Source of the DNA: Candidatus Heimdallarchaeota archaeon
Lineage (GTDB): Archaea > Asgardarchaeota > Heimdallarchaeia > Hodarchaeales > Hodarchaeaceae
Direction of reading: 5' to 3'
Assembly (NCBI GenBank): GCA_020353515.1
Contig: CP070695.1
Location: 441,173-505,172, forward strand
Length of the DNA stretch: 64,000 nucleotides
Position numbers and translations under genes: made by a program. The notes below the pieces were generated by a model, which worked only from the letters and a program-made list of their open reading frames with translations, made no database searches and was not told the DNA's origin. How positions within the stretch are numbered: the first letter of the stretch is position 1; each line of letters begins with the position of its first letter. Shown piece by piece: positions 17,908 to 43,263 of the stretch.

Positions 17908-18114
17908 GTGATGAGAATTAAAAACCGATTGAAAGAGTTGCGAAAAGAATACAACTTAACTCAAGAAGAGTTGGCGAACAAACTGAAAATCACCAGACAA
18001 ACCGTTATTGCTATTGAAAAAGGAAGATATAATCCTTCTCTTGGTCTTGCATTTAAGATCGCTCAACTATTCAAGTGTAAAATAGAAGATATATTCATTT
18101 TTGAAGAAAAATGA
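17908..18114 (+). CDS. XRE/Cro-family HTH transcriptional regulator
   Basis: LTQEELA...ITRQTVIAIEKGRYNPSL. Confidence 0.95.
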   Translation: MMRIKNRLKELRKEYNLTQEELANKLKITRQTVIAIEKGRYNPSLGLAFKIAQLFKCKIEDIFIFEEK

Positions 18115-18127
18115 TGAGGATAGGATA

Positions 18128-18850
18128 ATGTCAAGAGTTAACGATGCGCAGACTGCGTCAGAAGAGGAAAAAAACCAAATCAAGAATCAATCATCAAAAA
18201 GACATGAAAATGACAAAATAATGATTTTCACTATTGTTCTCGCTTCAGTTATGACCTTTCTACTTTATACCATTCCTGATTGGGTATTTCTTGAATATCC
18301 AATCAGAGATCTTGTTCAATTCATTCTCTCATTACTAGGTATTGTTAGTGAGCCTATACCCCAGAATGGACAATTCATAATACCAATAGAACTTCGTGGA
18401 GGTTCATTCCCCTTTCTAGAGGCAACAGAACAAACTCCAGGGGTACTGATTCCAGTCACCCAAGGACGTTATTATATCACAAAAACTTGTACTGCGATGC
18501 AGGCTGGCTCATTCCTGATAGGAATAATCGCTGTAACTGAAACCTCAAGAAGTTCAAAATTAAAAGCTATTTTATTAACCTTTATTACATTATTCTTTAT
18601 GAATGTTCTCAGGATAACGTTTCATTTCTGGTCTGTAACATTATTAGTTCAACATTTCCATCTAGACCACGAAACTGCTTTCTTTTGGGGACATGACATC
18701 TCTTCAAAAATACTGGGATTTATAGGAACAATTCTACTTGCGTTGTTAGTTGAACAAATGGATGTCCCAATTATTGACCAATTTGCAGATTGGTTAGATT
18801 ATTTCTGGTGGCGTGGAAATACTTTAATCGCGAAACTTATTAGAAACTGA
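18128..18850 (+). CDS. Archaeosortase/exosortase-family transpeptidase
   Basis: Polytopic with Cys (ITKTCTAM), Arg (MNVLRI) and His (GHD) triad; ATG 18128 preferred to TTG 18101. Confidence 0.85.
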   Translation: MSRVNDAQTASEEEKNQIKNQSSKRHENDKIMIFTIVLASVMTFLLYTIPDWVFLEYPIRDLVQFILSLLGIVSEPIPQNGQFIIPIELRGGSFPFLEATEQTPGVLIPVTQGRYYITKTCTAMQAGSFLIGIIAVTETSRSSKLKAILLTFITLFFMNVLRITFHFWSVTLLVQHFHLDHETAFFWGHDISSKILGFIGTILLALLVEQMDVPIIDQFADWLDYFWWRGNTLIAKLIRN

Positions 18851-35557: not shown

Positions 35558-37603
35558 CTAATCTAATTCAATGGTTGCCCATACCGCAGGATGATCTGAT
35601 TCTTTACTCACAATAAAATTACATTCAGAAACAGATATTCCAGATGAAACGAATATATGATCTATTCTATGGCTAATGTTATACTCAAGATCATCCAAGA
35701 AATCAGTGTTTGTCTTTCCAGCAAGTAACCATGAGTCATTTAGAGTGATAGTTGTCAAATTATATTGTTCAGTATTTGGTCTGAAATTAAAATCACCTAT
35801 AAGTACCACATTAGGTTTTCCATTCAGTTCGTCCATAATAGCCTCTTGTTGAACAATGGGGCCACCATTACCAAGATGTGTCACAAATATATTAAATGAT
35901 TTTGTACCAGCTTCAATCTGGGCTTTTATCGTTGCTGTCTGCTCTCCCTTACTGTACATGAAAAATGTCCTAGGATTTTGAATTGGATATTTCGAAAGCA
36001 ATGCAATACCAAAAGTACCTGTAACGGTCTTTGGACCATAATAGGAATACATTTTTAGGTTGTTAGCAAAATATCTAACAACGTCCATATTTCCATTGGC
36101 AATCCTGGCGGTATCGCATTCCTGTAATCCAATAATATCAGGATTAATAGATTTAACCAGCTTTAGTTGACCATTAAGGTTTTTGATACCATCTTCATTA
36201 TATCCTTGCTGGATATTATAAGTCATAACCGTTATAGAGTTTGTTGTTTCGGGAGTGGTGGGTATAGGGGTAGTTAAAAAGGCTGCTAAGACAGTTCCAA
36301 TTGTAATCAATATAATTCCTATAGATGTAATTCTGGATCCTAATGTCAATGATGGTTTCCTGAACACTAAATTTCTTTTTGTTATAAATAATGCTGGTAA
36401 CCCAACACTTACTCCTACTATTAAGTACACAAACCAAAACATGTCTCGGAAAAGAGGGCCTACAATATCGATGTAGTCATATACGGTTGTAAATACATGT
36501 GCAAAAATCATTACGACAATAAATAGTGATGCTAGAGTAAAACTACCTGCAAGTTTAACTATTGAAGGCTTACAATTATATAACTCACGAGAAATAAGTG
36601 TAAAGTCAACAAAGAGTATTGGGAAAAAAATTAACATTATTATTAACAGTATCAGATGTATTAGTGTTGTTGGAGGAGTAGTAATTGGATAACTTCCAGC
36701 TGAGGAAGGAAATTGGATTTGATTGAAGAAAATTGTAAGAACTAAGGTAAGGATAAAGACTGCATTCGCAAGCCAAATCATCCAAGGTTGTAATTTAACA
36801 AGTAAATCACGTCTAAATGTCATAAATATAACAAAAAAAGTAAGCATTAAGATTAGTAAAAGGATTATAAAGAAGTAATCTCCTTCAGTCCATCTAGAAA
36901 TGACCGTTGGACTGGCAAATGAATAATAAATCATCATTAATATTCCTATTATTCCAAAAGAGAAGCCTATCATTTTTAAAGAACTAATTGATTCTTTTTG
37001 ACTTGCAGAGCCCTCAAGATCCATTTTCTGTTCTGTTACAAACATACCAAGAATCATGATAGCCATAATTGCTGCGAGAATCCATCCAATTACTTGAAAC
37101 AAGCTGTATGTGGTAATATCAATCGTTGAACCAAGAGTTCTAAAGAGAATTGACATAGCAGCACCGATAGCTAATCCTAATCCGAGATTTACTCCATTTA
37201 GTTCTTCATCACCCATATACTTTTGTTGAAGAAATAGTGGAAAGAATATCAGAAAACAACCGACCCCAATTCCAGATGTAATCATTTTAATTTGTGTGTT
37301 TTGGACTACTAAAGGGGTTAGAATTCTACATACAACCATTAACTCCCCAACAATAACCAGAGCTTTATCAGAATTTCTCTTTTTAAAGAAAAATAATAAT
37401 AATGGAGAAAAGAAGAATAAAATGCTAAGAACATTTTCATTCAGAGACAGAGTTAGGAGACAAAGGGCATAAATTGCCTCTATGAAATCAGAAACCAATT
37501 CCAAGAAGAAGAAAAAGAGGATAGAAACTAATAATAGGTCGGAATAGTATTGTTCTAAGAATTTTTTCAATGAATGGATTGTTGACATAACTTTGGTAGA
37601 CAT
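35558..37603 (-). CDS. Polytopic membrane protein with C-terminal EEP domain (CWH43/PGAP2IP-like)
   Basis: More than 10 TM; MTYNI, GLQE, GDFN, IDHI, SDH. Confidence 0.85.
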   Translation of the reverse strand: MSTKVMSTIHSLKKFLEQYYSDLLLVSILFFFFLELVSDFIEAIYALCLLTLSLNENVLSILFFFSPLLLFFFKKRNSDKALVIVGELMVVCRILTPLVVQNTQIKMITSGIGVGCFLIFFPLFLQQKYMGDEELNGVNLGLGLAIGAAMSILFRTLGSTIDITTYSLFQVIGWILAAIMAIMILGMFVTEQKMDLEGSASQKESISSLKMIGFSFGIIGILMMIYYSFASPTVISRWTEGDYFFIILLLILMLTFFVIFMTFRRDLLVKLQPWMIWLANAVFILTLVLTIFFNQIQFPSSAGSYPITTPPTTLIHLILLIIMLIFFPILFVDFTLISRELYNCKPSIVKLAGSFTLASLFIVVMIFAHVFTTVYDYIDIVGPLFRDMFWFVYLIVGVSVGLPALFITKRNLVFRKPSLTLGSRITSIGIILITIGTVLAAFLTTPIPTTPETTNSITVMTYNIQQGYNEDGIKNLNGQLKLVKSINPDIIGLQECDTARIANGNMDVVRYFANNLKMYSYYGPKTVTGTFGIALLSKYPIQNPRTFFMYSKGEQTATIKAQIEAGTKSFNIFVTHLGNGGPIVQQEAIMDELNGKPNVVLIGDFNFRPNTEQYNLTTITLNDSWLLAGKTNTDFLDDLEYNISHRIDHIFVSSGISVSECNFIVSKESDHPAVWATIELD

Positions 37604-37693
37604 CTTTCTGTCTTAAAAAGGTTTTTATGAATAATTATTGGAGATCACAGCCTGTAGAATCATGATTTTTTTGTTTGTGCTTATACCCAAGTT

Positions 37694-38563
37694 TTACTCA
37701 CTGATCCAAGAGATATAATATTCTAAATGCGGAGGAATAGTGATACTAGGCCGTAAAAAATCCCAATCTCCTTTCAATCCTAATTCTTGAGCAGTTAAGT
37801 TGAAGTGACAAATAGCAATTCCTAAATCCACTCGTGGAAAATCAGGCCACGAGAGAAAGCGACTATACCAACTCCTTTTCCGAATAATGAAGAAATGGTA
37901 AGTATGAGTATCATTCTCCTTTATTATTCGCCAAGGCTGACGATTGGACGCTGAAGGGGCAAGTCGAATCATTTCTAAGGGTGTTTCGTATTGATCAGCT
38001 CTCTCTCGAGTAAGTGGATGATCGCAATCAACCTCAAAGAAGAGTGTCTGCCATGGATGACGATTTTTAGATCGAGCAGCCCAACGTGCAACTCTATCCA
38101 CCTTGCTTTGGCTTTTTGCTGCATAACCAACAGGAGTGATGGCTGGGACAACTTCATCATCGGTTATGTTGATTTGCGCTGCAAACCTACTGCGTTTAAG
38201 AGTTCCCCCTACCCAGCAAGTTCCCAAACCCAAATCGGTCGCATATAATACTAGCTCCTCCATGATGTAACCAAAATTTTCTAAATCATGTTCTGATTTC
38301 TTTGTTGCTCCAACCACAAAATTTTGAGCACCTTGGATGAACCCATACGTACCAAGCTGCCTTTTTACTTTAGGATTTAGTTCTGACATTTCTATTAATT
38401 CAAAACGGGTTTCTCCCTCTAAAGGGCTAGTACTGTCTCCTTGGAGAAATTCTTTCAGAAATCTCTTAGTTTTGTTATCAAGTAACTGGATTTCATATTT
38501 TCTACAAGAATAGCGCCGTTGAATGATTTCCACAATGGAAGTGGAAAAAGTCATTCTACTCAT
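37694..38563 (-). CDS. Two-domain nitroreductase-family protein
   Basis: RRYSCRKY, LGTCWVG, APSASNRQPW. Confidence 0.92.
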   Translation of the reverse strand: MSRMTFSTSIVEIIQRRYSCRKYEIQLLDNKTKRFLKEFLQGDSTSPLEGETRFELIEMSELNPKVKRQLGTYGFIQGAQNFVVGATKKSEHDLENFGYIMEELVLYATDLGLGTCWVGGTLKRSRFAAQINITDDEVVPAITPVGYAAKSQSKVDRVARWAARSKNRHPWQTLFFEVDCDHPLTRERADQYETPLEMIRLAPSASNRQPWRIIKENDTHTYHFFIIRKRSWYSRFLSWPDFPRVDLGIAICHFNLTAQELGLKGDWDFLRPSITIPPHLEYYISWISE

Positions 38564-38591
38564 TCCTCAAATCTTCTTGTATTAAGCCCTT

Positions 38592-40532
38592 TCATCCAAG
38601 AACTAGTTCAGTATAAACAGCCCGATGATCAGATACTCTTGGTGACCCAAAAATTGCACAATTAAGAACTGTCCAACTTCCTTTCAACCAAACATAGTCA
38701 ATCCGTTTTACAGCAAATCCAGAATTATTATAGGACGTCCCACTATCAGAAGTATTTCCAGATAATATCCAAGTATCTGAAAAAGTTGAATTAAGAAGCA
38801 CAAATGCTTGATCTGTCACATCTGGACGAGTATTAAAATCACCAAGGATGATAGAATTAGTAAAATCCTCTGTAATATCAAGGATTTTTACAGCCTGATT
38901 ATATCTATCAATTGTATACTTACCTGTTTGAAAATGGGTTACTACAATAGGTAATTCCCCCGCTATCTCACCAGTATCAATTTCTACCACAATCGCTACT
39001 CGTTCGATGGATTGATATGCTGGTAAGTCCTCATAATAAGCAGATAATATTGGAAATCTTGAAAGAAGAGATACTCCGTAAATTTGAGCAGAAGTTGGAG
39101 GCCCATAATAATAATAATTCATCCCAGTCTGATGAGCGAGCCATTGCACACCATTCATACTTGATGATGTAATTCGGGCACCTTCTGATTCTTGTAATCC
39201 AACAACATCTGCTCCAGATTCTAGTATGACATCCCTTACTTGTTCAAGGTTATAAAGACCTGTTTGTCCAATTGAGAAGTACTGATGAATATTGAAAGTC
39301 ATGACCTTAAGTTTACTTGTGTCTGGACTCTTTTGAACCTTAAGAAGATCATTAGTAACCACACCCAACATTGAAATAATGATTGCAGACAGGAAGATAA
39401 TACGTACAGAATTTAATACCTGTTGAGGTTTCTTTTTGAAGTTAAGAGGTATTTCAAATCTTAAGCTAGCTAAGGGGAGAAGTAATCCTGCTACAAATAT
39501 AGTAGTTGCAGCATGCCCACGAGTAAAGGCTAAAATTGAGGGCATAAACGCCCAATTCCCAGCGCTTACGTGTAAGATCAGGATGAATACCATTAAAAAT
39601 TGAAATACAGTCATTCTTAATCCAACAACCCTGGGTGATCTAATCGAGTTCTTACTCAAACCCATGTAAAGGATAACACAAATTGAAACCTGTACAGTAA
39701 AGTAAGTGATAAAGGGCATGAGATTTATCCAGAGAAGATCTATTAAGGAGAAAAGAAACAAGATTACCCACCCGAACTCCAATTTGTTTTGGGTAAGATG
39801 ACCCCCTTTTTCAAAAGTTAATAAACCACCTAGTACAAGACCAAAGATTCCAGTAAATGATATAAGTATGTAATTCCTGAAAAACCATGTAGATACGACA
39901 TTAGGAAAACCTAGGAATAAAATTTGAATAAAGAGGAAACCTATAACTGGAGGCACCCCAGTAAACGTTGATTGTGAAGATTCTATTAATCGAGGATCAT
40001 ATCTGATATTGAAAAACCAGAGTAGAATTCCTAAGCTTATCCAGAAAAGGAATAGAATCGTTCCAATAATGGTAGCATAATAAGAAGCTGTTCCGAGCCA
40101 TGAACGCAAAATAATCTGGAGTACGACTCCTAAGATTATGCTCAAAGAAAACTGTTCTTTCTCAAGTTGAATTCGGTTTACGAGCACCGGAGTAATGAAT
40201 ATCATAGCAAAAATGGCAGCAAGAGTAGCAATTAGTGTGACTGGAATAAAGCTTAATACGACCATAATTGTTGCTCCAAGGATGCAGACTGACAGAGTTC
40301 TCATCGAATGAGGATATGGTAGAATCACTTCCACAAGTCCAGTCAATAGAAAAAGAACTAAAAGAATAGTCACATTTGGTCCTGCAGTAGAAAAGTTTAG
40401 CACAAAGATCATTGTTAAAAAACGTTCTAGCTGTGTGAAGAAAAGAAAAACTATAATTGTTCCAAAAATTAATTGGAAAAGGAAATTTAATAATTCTTGA
40501 GAAAGAATCGGTTTTTTTTCCACGTTTATCAA
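38592..40532 (-). CDS. Second polytopic membrane EEP protein (CWH43/PGAP2IP-like)
   Basis: MTFNIHQ, GLQE, GDFN, IDYV, SDH; paralogue of 35558-37603. Confidence 0.85.
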   Translation of the reverse strand: MINVEKKPILSQELLNFLFQLIFGTIIVFLFFTQLERFLTMIFVLNFSTAGPNVTILLVLFLLTGLVEVILPYPHSMRTLSVCILGATIMVVLSFIPVTLIATLAAIFAMIFITPVLVNRIQLEKEQFSLSIILGVVLQIILRSWLGTASYYATIIGTILFLFWISLGILLWFFNIRYDPRLIESSQSTFTGVPPVIGFLFIQILFLGFPNVVSTWFFRNYILISFTGIFGLVLGGLLTFEKGGHLTQNKLEFGWVILFLFSLIDLLWINLMPFITYFTVQVSICVILYMGLSKNSIRSPRVVGLRMTVFQFLMVFILILHVSAGNWAFMPSILAFTRGHAATTIFVAGLLLPLASLRFEIPLNFKKKPQQVLNSVRIIFLSAIIISMLGVVTNDLLKVQKSPDTSKLKVMTFNIHQYFSIGQTGLYNLEQVRDVILESGADVVGLQESEGARITSSSMNGVQWLAHQTGMNYYYYGPPTSAQIYGVSLLSRFPILSAYYEDLPAYQSIERVAIVVEIDTGEIAGELPIVVTHFQTGKYTIDRYNQAVKILDITEDFTNSIILGDFNTRPDVTDQAFVLLNSTFSDTWILSGNTSDSGTSYNNSGFAVKRIDYVWLKGSWTVLNCAIFGSPRVSDHRAVYTELVLG

Positions 40533-40669
40533 CTCAAGTAAGAACTTTAACTAGAGTATCTTAATAAAAAGCGAATGTATTAGAGCGTTAAATAAAGTCT
40601 TTGGCATCGATAACAAAAATTAAAGAGTACAAAGATCCTACTCACTATAGTAATCAGTGGTAAGAGAAA

Positions 40670-41532: not shown

Positions 41533-43263
41533 TTAGTTTTCTTGTTGATAATTACTCCGTAATTGAGTGAACATTGGAACATATAGGATAGGTACCCATC
41601 CTTTCGGAGCAGGACGCCAACGACCGATAACAGCTTTTACTTCTTCTCCTTCAGTGAAATTACAGATCCTGGGATTGTAATTAAATCCTCTAACCATTTT
41701 TTGGTCAAACATTGCCCAGTAAGGATTCTCAGGATGACCAGCTGCTTTCTTTGAGGGATTATAATAATGCACCTGTTTAATTTTAGCTCGTTTCGGGATC
41801 TTTAACACTTGCAATTTCGTTCCGCATATTCTTTTAGCGTCACCAGTTGTGTTCTCAATCCCACGTAAACAACGATCTTCCAATTCGCCAAATTTCTCTG
41901 GAGGAGCAAAATCTGGGAAGTTAGCTTTGGTCCAACTGTCCCCAAAATAGACGGCACCGCATTTTGGGCACCCCTCTACTTGATAATATTCTTTTGATAG
42001 TGGATCTACTTCCAATAAGGCGATATGCCGAGCAGCTTGATCAGGAGTATCACGAAACTTAAAATAATCCTCAACCGTGATTTTCTGTTTGTATTCTATT
42101 TGTTCCTGAACAGTTGGAACGCCATTATTAGCAACTTGTGAACCATCAGCTTTCACTTTAATACTAATGACATCGGAACCAGCACCTGATCCATAAAGAA
42201 CAGTCATAATCTCATCGCCAGGTTCAGCAGTTTCCATCGCATTGCATAAAGCAGTTGGAACAGTCGCAGAATAACCATTGGCAATAACTGGGGCTAAATT
42301 AGATACTTTAACCCTCGGTTCGATACCAAGCATCTTACCGTCGTCATCAAACATCTTTTCAGCTAAGGGGACGCCAAAATGATTACCAATGTCGATTAAA
42401 GCCTCATTAGGAAATGATCCATTTGGAGAGTGAATCACCCAAGTTTTAGTTTGAAGACAGTCAGGACTGATGTCGGAATAATTCACAAGGTGTTTCTTCA
42501 GGGTTGAAAGAATCATTCCACGGAAGGCCAGTGAAGTACCTTGACCCTCATGCTCTGGGAATGCTTCCCCATCTTTTCTAATAAAATCTGAGAAGTCATA
42601 GTTGATTGAGGTTCGTCCTTTTATTTCTGCAATCCCTTTCTCTTTCCCAAGAATGATGCTAGTGGAATAGAAGGAAGCAGAAAACTCTAGGTCATCTCCA
42701 GGAGCCCCTTGACTCGCATCAGTTGCAGTAACCGCAACATAACGACATCTTCCAGAATCAATTAGGGCGGCTGCAATGTCAAGAAATTCACCAAAGGGCT
42801 TACAGGCAAACTCTCCTCGCACACCATATTTCAGATCAGTTAAACCAGCCTTTCCAGCAATAGCTGTACTTGATTTTACAGCATAGGGATAAGATTCTGA
42901 AACAACGAATAACGCATCAATTTCTTCAGGTTTGATTCCAGCACGGCGAATAGCATAACTCAAAGATTGGATCCCTGCAGTCAATGCATCTTCGTTTGGA
43001 CCAGGAACAACCTTTTCTCGAAGCATTAATCGTTGATGGTAAACCCATCTCACACTACTCAAGGCCTTTCCTCGAAAACGATTGACAGTTCTCTTAAGTT
43101 TTCTCAAAGCAACCTTATAATTAAGTGTGGACAAACTATGGTAATTATCCACGAGTTCTTGAATTTCAAGACGATTTTGAGGTATAAAAGACGCTATTGC
43201 CTTAATATCTGCCATATAAATAACCATCGCGTAGGTTTTGTGATGTTTCTTTGGTGTAACCAA
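41533..43263 (-). CDS. Archaeal HMG-CoA synthase fused to a DUF35-like Zn-ribbon/OB domain
   Basis: ESYPYAVK, EFACK, HSPNG, ANGYS, YGSGAGSD; C-terminal CPKCG...C...CG plus OB-like strands. Confidence 0.85.
   Translation of the reverse strand: MVTPKKHHKTYAMVIYMADIKAIASFIPQNRLEIQELVDNYHSLSTLNYKVALRKLKRTVNRFRGKALSSVRWVYHQRLMLREKVVPGPNEDALTAGIQSLSYAIRRAGIKPEEIDALFVVSESYPYAVKSSTAIAGKAGLTDLKYGVRGEFACKPFGEFLDIAAALIDSGRCRYVAVTATDASQGAPGDDLEFSASFYSTSIILGKEKGIAEIKGRTSINYDFSDFIRKDGEAFPEHEGQGTSLAFRGMILSTLKKHLVNYSDISPDCLQTKTWVIHSPNGSFPNEALIDIGNHFGVPLAEKMFDDDGKMLGIEPRVKVSNLAPVIANGYSATVPTALCNAMETAEPGDEIMTVLYGSGAGSDVISIKVKADGSQVANNGVPTVQEQIEYKQKITVEDYFKFRDTPDQAARHIALLEVDPLSKEYYQVEGCPKCGAVYFGDSWTKANFPDFAPPEKFGELEDRCLRGIENTTGDAKRICGTKLQVLKIPKRAKIKQVHYYNPSKKAAGHPENPYWAMFDQKMVRGFNYNPRICNFTEGEEVKAVIGRWRPAPKGWVPILYVPMFTQLRSNYQQEN

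Follow-up and report, generated by a model that had tools for sequence, protein, structure and literature searches.

Two membrane-embedded EEP proteins of a Heimdallarchaeota genome: distant homologues of Cwh43/PGAP2IP and candidate head-group phosphodiesterases

Introduction

Fungal Cwh43 and animal PGAP2IP are among the least understood enzymes of glycosylphosphatidylinositol (GPI)-anchor maturation. On GPI anchors, Cwh43 replaces diacylglycerol or phosphatidic acid by ceramide (PMC4962981), and the role of the Cwh43/PGAP2IP EEP domain has been described as vague (PMC10704324). Two open reading frames (ORFs) in a 64,000-nucleotide stretch of the genome of Candidatus Heimdallarchaeota archaeon (GCA_020353515.1, contig CP070695.1, positions 441,173 to 505,172; this whole stretch is hereafter the window) raise the question of whether such proteins have archaeal relatives and, if so, what these relatives do. 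A reading made from the sequence alone had taken the two products, P0001 and P0002, for active relatives of Cwh43/PGAP2IP acting on lipid head groups or lipid-anchored proteins, and possibly ancestral to the eukaryotic enzyme. Below, P0001 and its relatives are called family 1, P0002 and its relatives family 2, and a third, rare group family 3.

Results

Homology over the membrane and EEP parts

The features in question, in window positions, are:

38592..40532, minus strand: P0002, family-2 gene, 646 aa (ORF and translation)
37694..38563, minus strand: P0003, TM1586-type nitroreductase, 289 aa (PF14512, 133.8 bits; PF00881, 62.4 bits)
35558..37603, minus strand: P0001, family-1 gene, 681 aa (PF23226 and PF03372)
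36254..37603, minus strand: membrane part of P0001, residues 1-450, predicted as TM1-12 in a 6+6 fold like that of the major facilitator superfamily (MFS), then TM13
35558..36241, minus strand: EEP phosphodiesterase domain of P0001, residues 455-681 (Pfam, Foldseek, residue conservation)

The sequence-only reading had located both ORFs correctly, with the nitroreductase gene between them, and the motifs it quoted were found again, DIIGLQECDTARIANGNMDVVRYF..., GIALLSKYPI and AHVFTTVYDYI..VGPLFR in P0001 and LHVSAGNWAFMP..FTR in P0002. Both proteins match the generic EEP model PF03372 and the PGAP2IP-type EEP model PF23226 (curated cut-off 27 bits), the latter also matching all 32 family-1 and all 19 family-2 members; the PGAP2IP-specific model scores 84.5 bits against 66 for the generic one in P0001, and 63.6 against 64.7 in P0002.

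As a eukaryotic comparison set we collected sequences by a length-restricted search followed by exhaustive phmmer, the eukaryotes named being Papus, Gefionella, Chlorokybus, Artemidia, Phalansterium, Polysphondylium, Riccia, Achlya, Acrasis, Willaertia and Naegleria. Several members of the set show the full Cwh43 architecture (Frag1 + 6TM_1st + 6TM_2nd + EEP_PGAP2IP, up to 371 bits), and by the mainstream eukaryotic type we mean the protist, algal and amoebozoan Cwh43/PGAP2IP (PF23226 at 190-371 bits). Profile-profile comparison with hhalign joined family 1 to the eukaryotes over 612 collinear columns at full length (E 2.8e-48) and, with the transmembrane (TM) part alone, over 376 collinear columns at 96.9% probability (E 2e-10). 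The TM part of family 2 aligned with the eukaryotes at 89.4% (E 2e-6), and control templates, reversed or column-shuffled, reached E 0.14-1. When a hidden Markov model of the family-1 TM part was run against a set of 158 sequences, it also matched a protein of the Cwh43 type from Papus, again collinearly (E 2.7e-7). Motifs that the sequence-only reading had pointed to, RW and ..G..FR, proved to be conserved in eukaryotes: R237 and W238, after TM7, are R and W in 11/11 of the named eukaryotes, and R386, after TM11, is R in 10/11. On these alignments we judge the homology of both genes to Cwh43-C/PGAP2IP to be real, over the TM as well as the EEP parts, much as the noted resemblance had suggested.

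The rival to be faced here is that the likeness goes no further than generic EEP motifs, the polytopic anchor to which they are joined being unrelated, a reading to which we give hardly any credence. It could call upon the hmmscan of P0001 and P0002, in which neither PF23022 nor PF23021 (the PGAP2IP 6-TM models) appeared at E<=1, and upon BLAST, in which P0001 matched a PGAP2IP-like protein significantly over only ~100 EEP residues. However, PF23021 is found in 3/32 family-1 relatives (best E 2.3e-4) and PF23022 in 1/32 (E 0.022), the curated cut-offs of both being passed by family 3 and by eukaryotes; the Papus match and the conservation of R237, W238 and R386 across all groups also stand against it, and the TM-only profile comparison with its controls, which bears directly on similarity confined to EEP motifs, refuted it.

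Fold and topology of the membrane domain

AlphaFold2 modelled full-length P0001 from a 32-sequence alignment with 13 TM helices as 6+6+1, followed by the EEP domain, at a mean predicted local distance difference test score of 85.2 and a predicted template modelling score (pTM) of 0.88; residues 1-450 alone gave 83.1 and 0.88, and hydropathy indicated a similar helix count (about 13) for P0002. The TM-only model was compared by VIA-align with 48,161 solved chains, and the top 50 PDB matches were all MFS transporters (Z 18.8-12.4, 314-380 aligned residues), with a superposition spanning residues 14-413, that is, twelve TM helices in two six-helix bundles. Among them were the lipid carriers Spns1 with lysophosphatidylcholine (9boi_A, Z 16.9), SPNS2 and LtaA (6s7v_A, Z 13.8), and the top ESM Atlas clusters were likewise MFS (TM-score 0.55-0.59). 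Since the top structure matches of the model were all MFS, the two 6-TM domains of PGAP2IP-type proteins are predicted to form an MFS-like fold, at least in prokaryotic family 1. An internal duplication between the 6-TM halves of P0001 was sought and gave no signal (E 0.29). An MFS fold of CWH43 was stated nowhere that our literature search found.

By the positive-inside rule, lysine plus arginine averaging 11.0 on the N-terminal side and 3.7 on the EEP side over 32 sequences, the N-terminus would lie inside and the EEP domain outside. The strongly conserved loop motifs of family 1 are all on the EEP side: DISTY near D162, SPTVISRWT at 231-239, QIxFP..YP at 295-306 and YDYIxxVGPxFRD at 375-387. 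The TM2-TM3 loop of the family measures just 2 residues. In the full-length model (pTM 0.88) the predicted, catalytically complete EEP domain packs on the outer face of the MFS-fold domain.

An intact active site, rebuilt in mainstream eukaryotes

The catalytic residues of P0001 are N463, Q494-E495, H576, G603-D-F-N606, D648 and S669-D-H671, with equivalents in P0002; the eight canonical EEP residues among them are N463, E495, H576, D604, N606, D648, D670 and H671. This NEHDNDDH set is present in both proteins and invariant across families 1 and 2 (32/32 in family 1), in agreement with the claim of more than ten TM helices plus an EEP domain with intact catalytic motifs. A Foldseek search of the full P0001 model against the PDB returned many EEP structures at probability 1.00, including 4ruw, Tdp2 and human neutral sphingomyelinase 8j2f, all of them generic EEP matches with none for the TM part, and phmmer against the PDB found no match at E<=0.01. 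Because all eight canonical residues are kept, P0001 and P0002 look like ordinary active phosphodiesterases.

The eukaryotes present a different picture. Whereas the eight positions are N-E-H-D-N-D-D-H in families 1, 2 and 3 alike, the mainstream eukaryotic EEP reads T/A-E-H-Y-T-E/Q-D-T, with 5/8 replaced, in Papus, Gefionella, Artemidia, Chlorokybus, Phalansterium and Polysphondylium (sequences P0193, P0194, P0244, P0293, P0311 and P0198, compared with P0001/P0123); Heterolobosea, Riccia and Achlya retain more of the canonical residues than this mainstream type. The hhalign alignment of family 1 with the eukaryotes agrees with the contrast. It would appear that the eukaryotic remodelase has a rebuilt EEP site, and for that reason a direct transfer of Cwh43 function to the archaeal proteins is weakened.

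Phylogenetic position

Two trees, a 158-sequence FastTree and a 64-sequence IQ-TREE under LG+C20+F+G4, both unrooted and with long branches, recovered the same deep split (FastTree support 96; Shimodaira-Hasegawa-like approximate likelihood ratio test, SH-aLRT, 100). One side holds families 1 and 2 together with several further prokaryotic clades, and the other all eukaryotes, two clades of metagenomic sequences and family 3. Approximately unbiased (AU) tests, run under LG+G4 on 34 rows with groups named after the tree was seen, rejected eukaryotes plus family 1 (delta lnL 206.6, p 1.8e-24) and eukaryotes plus family 2 (delta lnL 90.1, p 1.5e-18), and did not reject family 3 as sister to the rest of the eukaryotic side (p 0.054). 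Given the deep split and these rejections, P0001 and P0002 are read as old out-paralogues of the eukaryotic Cwh43/PGAP2IP lineage and not as its direct ancestors; with family 3 on the eukaryotic side, the idea that they are ancestral to the eukaryotic enzyme has to be given up.

The nearest Asgard relative of Cwh43/PGAP2IP, as judged from these trees, is family 3, not P0001 or P0002. Among 400 Asgard genomes it has 5 clear orthologues (E<=1e-128) and one fragmentary match, its hosts being Heimdallarchaeia that share class and order with the host genome of the window, in which the family was sought and is absent. All three PGAP2IP Pfam models recognise it (116.8, 109.5 and 52.6 bits). Its contigs carry Asgard-typical genes, e.g., an Arf/Ras/Roc GTPase; the contig of one basal member, however, is bacterial and carries a PBP1 gene.

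Family-3 loci: L087:301-2172; L088-L092; L085:8001-9815; L086:7879-9813

As a side observation, the contig L100, whose PGAP2IP-like protein P0184 grouped with one of the metagenomic clades in the FastTree, carries a CoA-transferase gene in many pieces and a Popeye-domain gene. Because these genes are fragmented and eukaryote-like, the P0170 clade probably comes from microbial eukaryotes.

GPI pathway context

The host genome is a single contig of 4.94 Mb, 96% complete, with exactly two PF23226 genes. It gave no match to PF10277, PF06423, PF01650, PF08288 or PF07994, models which cover myo-inositol-phosphate synthase (PF07994), PIG-A, GWT1, Frag1/PGAP2 and the C13 (GPI8-type) peptidase; PF07994 did match its controls, archaea with inositol lipids, and PF10277 and PF06423 (Frag1, GWT1) matched no control genome, so that these two absences are weak. 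Generic PIG-L-family deacetylases alone are present. A 2026 study (PMC12872458) gave an Asgard ancestry to the synthesis of GPI anchors in general; neither that paper nor its two supplements mentions CWH43 or PGAP2IP.

Families, distribution and neighbourhoods

The two genes had been called near-tandem paralogues. Paralogues they are, by profile, and yet not recent ones: BLAST of P0001 against P0002 aligns the EEP domains alone (32% identity), and the TM parts are related at profile level only (hhalign 97.5%, E 8e-12, 380 columns), for which reasons the duplication appears to be ancient.

The best protein matches of the window carry the labels of Hodarchaeota, Heimdallarchaeota or Promethearchaeota metagenome-assembled genomes (MAGs), which fits an Asgard archaeon of the Heimdallarchaeia/Hodarchaeales type. 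Family 1 is large, with >1,100 database matches, 257 loci among species-representative genomes and orthologues (E<=1e-100) in 138/400 Asgard genomes; outside the Asgard archaea it is frequent in Chloroflexota (Anaerolineae, Chloroflexia) and has a few members in Nitrospiraceae and Bacillota. Family 2 is small and consists of Hodarchaeales or Heimdall-type MAG proteins together with haloarchaeal ones (Haloarchaeobius, Halorarius) at ~30% identity over the full length. A search for longer fused forms yielded only a handful of bacterial proteins extended by further domains at the C-terminus, and one PGAP2IP-like protein. P0001 and P0002 are ordinary members of widespread prokaryotic families, and it is the family rather than the locus that is of interest.

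Three related genomes (L003, L005, L006) have the same succession of genes as the window, with the nitroreductase between family 2 and family 1, and only 7 related loci (L003-L006, L010, L023, L026) have a nitroreductase gene immediately upstream of the family-1 gene. An ABC ATPase gene occurs in 13/80 family-1 loci. An MFS_2 gene, of the sugar/lipid type, lies near family 1 in 9/80 (L030, L011-L013, L015-L017, L042, L076), mostly in Loki-type genomes and once in a Chloroflexia MAG, and directly upstream of family 1 at L030:4542-5912. In Haloarchaeobius sp. a glycerophosphodiester phosphodiesterase (GDPD) gene (L101:6174-6839, minus) adjoins the family-2 gene (L101:7001-8911) divergently, a weak hint at phospholipid head-group catabolism; the Halorarius family-2 gene (L102) has no such neighbour. 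Several family-1 genes of other Asgard genomes contain 1-3 in-frame stops (G148, 2 TAG; G238, 2 TGA; G218, 2 TAA; G059, 1 TAG + 2 TAA), possibly as pseudogenes, assembly errors or recoding.

Gene layout and other ORFs of the window

P0002, P0003 and P0001 are co-directional, with gaps of 28 nt (P0002-P0003) and 90 nt (P0003-P0001). The database copy of P0002 starts at a GTG three codons later and has 643 aa, and this GTG, at 40523, is the probable start. Upstream lies one further feature:

40533..40669, minus strand: AT-rich intergenic stretch upstream of P0002, common to the divergent Fpg gene

This stretch contains TATA-like runs, read from the sequence, which may be an archaeal promoter. 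Since another TATA-like run lies in the 90-nt gap ahead of P0001, co-transcription is no more than a possibility.

Elsewhere in the window, a 576-aa ORF (41533-43263, minus) has no Pfam match at E<=0.001, and its homologue in L004 gives a weak ACP_syn_III_C match (E 3e-5), compatible with a divergent thiolase or a condensing enzyme resembling 3-hydroxy-3-methylglutaryl-coenzyme A synthase. The ORF at 18101-18850 (plus), a putative archaeosortase-family gene, matched no Pfam family at E<=0.01.

Discussion

What, then, might such proteins do? We hold it slightly better than an even bet that P0001 and P0002 are lipid or glycoconjugate head-group phosphodiesterases. Each would be a single-chain membrane ecto-enzyme, composed of an N-in, 12-helix MFS-fold domain, a 13th helix and an outer, metal-dependent EEP phosphodiesterase. 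The MFS-like domain may take up or flip a membrane lipid or lipid-linked glycan, and R237-W238 together with D376/Y377...G382...R386 in the outer loops may offer the phosphodiester head group of that molecule to the EEP site. The site in turn would cleave the head group in the manner of a phospholipase C, a sphingomyelinase or a GlcNAc-phosphodiesterase, or else transfer it. Rather than on a GPI anchor, the two proteins probably act on the head group of an ordinary phospholipid or glycolipid of the archaeon, or on a phospho-substituent carried by a surface glycoconjugate. In the EEP subgroup concerned, the only assayed members remove phosphocholine (PC) or phosphoethanolamine (PE) from N-acetylglucosamine (GlcNAc), the neighbours are sphingomyelinases, and an uncharacterised 'Asgard/Chloroflexus group' is listed beside Cwh43p and PGAP2IP (PMC10704324). 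The GDPD neighbour of family 2 and the MFS_2 genes near family 1 offer weak hints from context in the same direction.

Several observations weigh against this head-group reading. The lipid substrate is borrowed from a distant homologue with a remodelled EEP site; membership in the MFS fold comes from a predicted structure of P0001 at ~10% identity, and Pfam gave no MFS match for P0001 itself and MFS_1 in just 1/32 relatives (E 2.9e-4). Genomic context is of little help, the window neighbours of P0001 and P0002 being unrelated housekeeping genes, and the comparison of 80 family-1 loci having brought out no conserved informative neighbours beyond the clade-specific nitroreductase.

An alternative that we consider unlikely is a nutrient-scavenging module, in which the outer EEP domain would hydrolyse a soluble extracellular phosphodiester, be it a nucleic acid, a glycerophosphodiester or a phospho-sugar, while a product would be imported by the MFS domain. 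The modelled MFS fold would suit an importer and the GDPD neighbour in one haloarchaeon would suit the cargo, and the EEP superfamily does include nucleases and phosphatases; however, the NCBIfam xth match that might recall a nuclease is weak (E 4e-6), its 26.5 bits falling far under the 99-bit cut-off, and within the EEP enzymes the nearest kin belong to the sugar-phosphodiesterase/Cwh43 group and the sphingomyelinases rather than to the nucleases (PMC10704324). Moreover, the strongest conservation resides in the outer loops on the EEP side and not in a canonical cytoplasmic motif of the MFS, the TM2-TM3 loop having just two residues, and a membrane lipid is what the one full-length homologue to have been characterised acts on. 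Less probable again is that P0001 and P0002 are equivalents of Cwh43, exchanging lipid moieties by transphosphatidylation, with a GPI-like glycolipid or lipid-anchored surface proteins as substrate, and thus forming an archaeal precursor of GPI lipid remodelling. The full-length homology, the outward and hence lumen-equivalent EEP domain and the Asgard ancestry given to GPI synthesis in general (PMC12872458) all lend it some appeal. A GPI or archaetidylinositol substrate finds no footing in a genome without GPI-pathway matches (the Frag1 and GWT1 absences being weak evidence), and the equivalence itself is opposed by the position of both families as out-paralogues (SH-aLRT and AU results above), by an active-site signature unlike that of mainstream eukaryotic Cwh43/PGAP2IP, by the fact that family 1 belongs just as much to Chloroflexota and by the silence of PMC12872458 and its supplements on CWH43 or PGAP2IP.

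A more far-reaching reading may be added as a long shot: the Asgard proteins with MFS-fold and ecto-EEP domains would be flippase-coupled lipid head-group transferases that remodel the lipid part of archaeal surface glycolipids or lipid-anchored proteins, and the three Heimdallarchaeia families would represent a pre-eukaryotic diversification behind the GPI lipid remodelase. If this were true, eukaryotes would later have rebuilt the EEP site (5/8 positions) in passing from hydrolysis to lipid exchange.

Part of the present picture is already known, in that Pfam tags the EEP domain and the EEP cluster was noticed in a 2023 paper (PMC10704324). In our literature search, we did not find the full-length TM and EEP homology, the MFS fold, the three Heimdallarchaeia families or the catalytic contrast with eukaryotes. 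What they mean together is that the whole Cwh43/PGAP2IP core, a transporter-fold 12-TM domain with an EEP domain, appears to exist in prokaryotes with a canonical active site, providing tractable models for the handling of membrane substrates, including family-2 members in cultured haloarchaea. It also supplies a concrete test of the claim of an Asgard-derived GPI machinery (PMC12872458). For P0001 and P0002 the Asgard-GPI story is tempered, as they are side branches, common to Chloroflexota and haloarchaea, in a genome without a GPI pathway.

Comparison with known systems

The closest known counterparts are PGAP2IP of mammals (encoded by CWH43) and, in fungi and protists, the C-terminal two-thirds of Cwh43, both defined by PF23022 + PF23021 + PF23226. 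P0001 and P0002 differ from these in lying across the deepest supported split and in having TM parts under the Pfam thresholds; from the mainstream eukaryotic type in keeping all eight EEP residues; and from Cwh43 in lacking a Frag1/PGAP2 module or partner and, in their host genome, a GPI pathway. They nevertheless share the order 6TM + 6TM + linker TM + C-terminal, non-cytoplasmic EEP, collinear over ~610 columns, the RW after TM7 and the G..FR after TM11, and an EEP domain that passes PF23226. Family 3 (e.g., P0179 from a Hodarchaeota MAG) has the same architecture and the same intact NEHDNDDH, but, unlike P0001 and P0002, it passes the three PGAP2IP models, groups with eukaryotes and is rare.

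With MFS lipid carriers (Spns1/SPNS2, LtaA) the likeness lies in the predicted TM fold of P0001, at ~7-10% identity; MFS transporters of non-lipid cargo equal or exceed these scores against the same model, so that the fold does not indicate the cargo, and, unlike P0001, no transporter in the solved MFS set has a fused EEP domain. Neutral sphingomyelinase (8j2f) matches P0001 in the EEP fold. The GlcNAc-phosphodiesterase group (J Biol Chem 2023, PMC10704324) belongs, according to that paper, to the same EEP subcluster, and it shares the conserved metal ligands of a metal-dependent phosphodiesterase; its enzymes, however, are soluble, secreted, single-domain proteins of 219-357 aa specific for GlcNAc-6-PC/PE, whereas P0001 and P0002 carry their EEP domain on a predicted 13-TM membrane domain.

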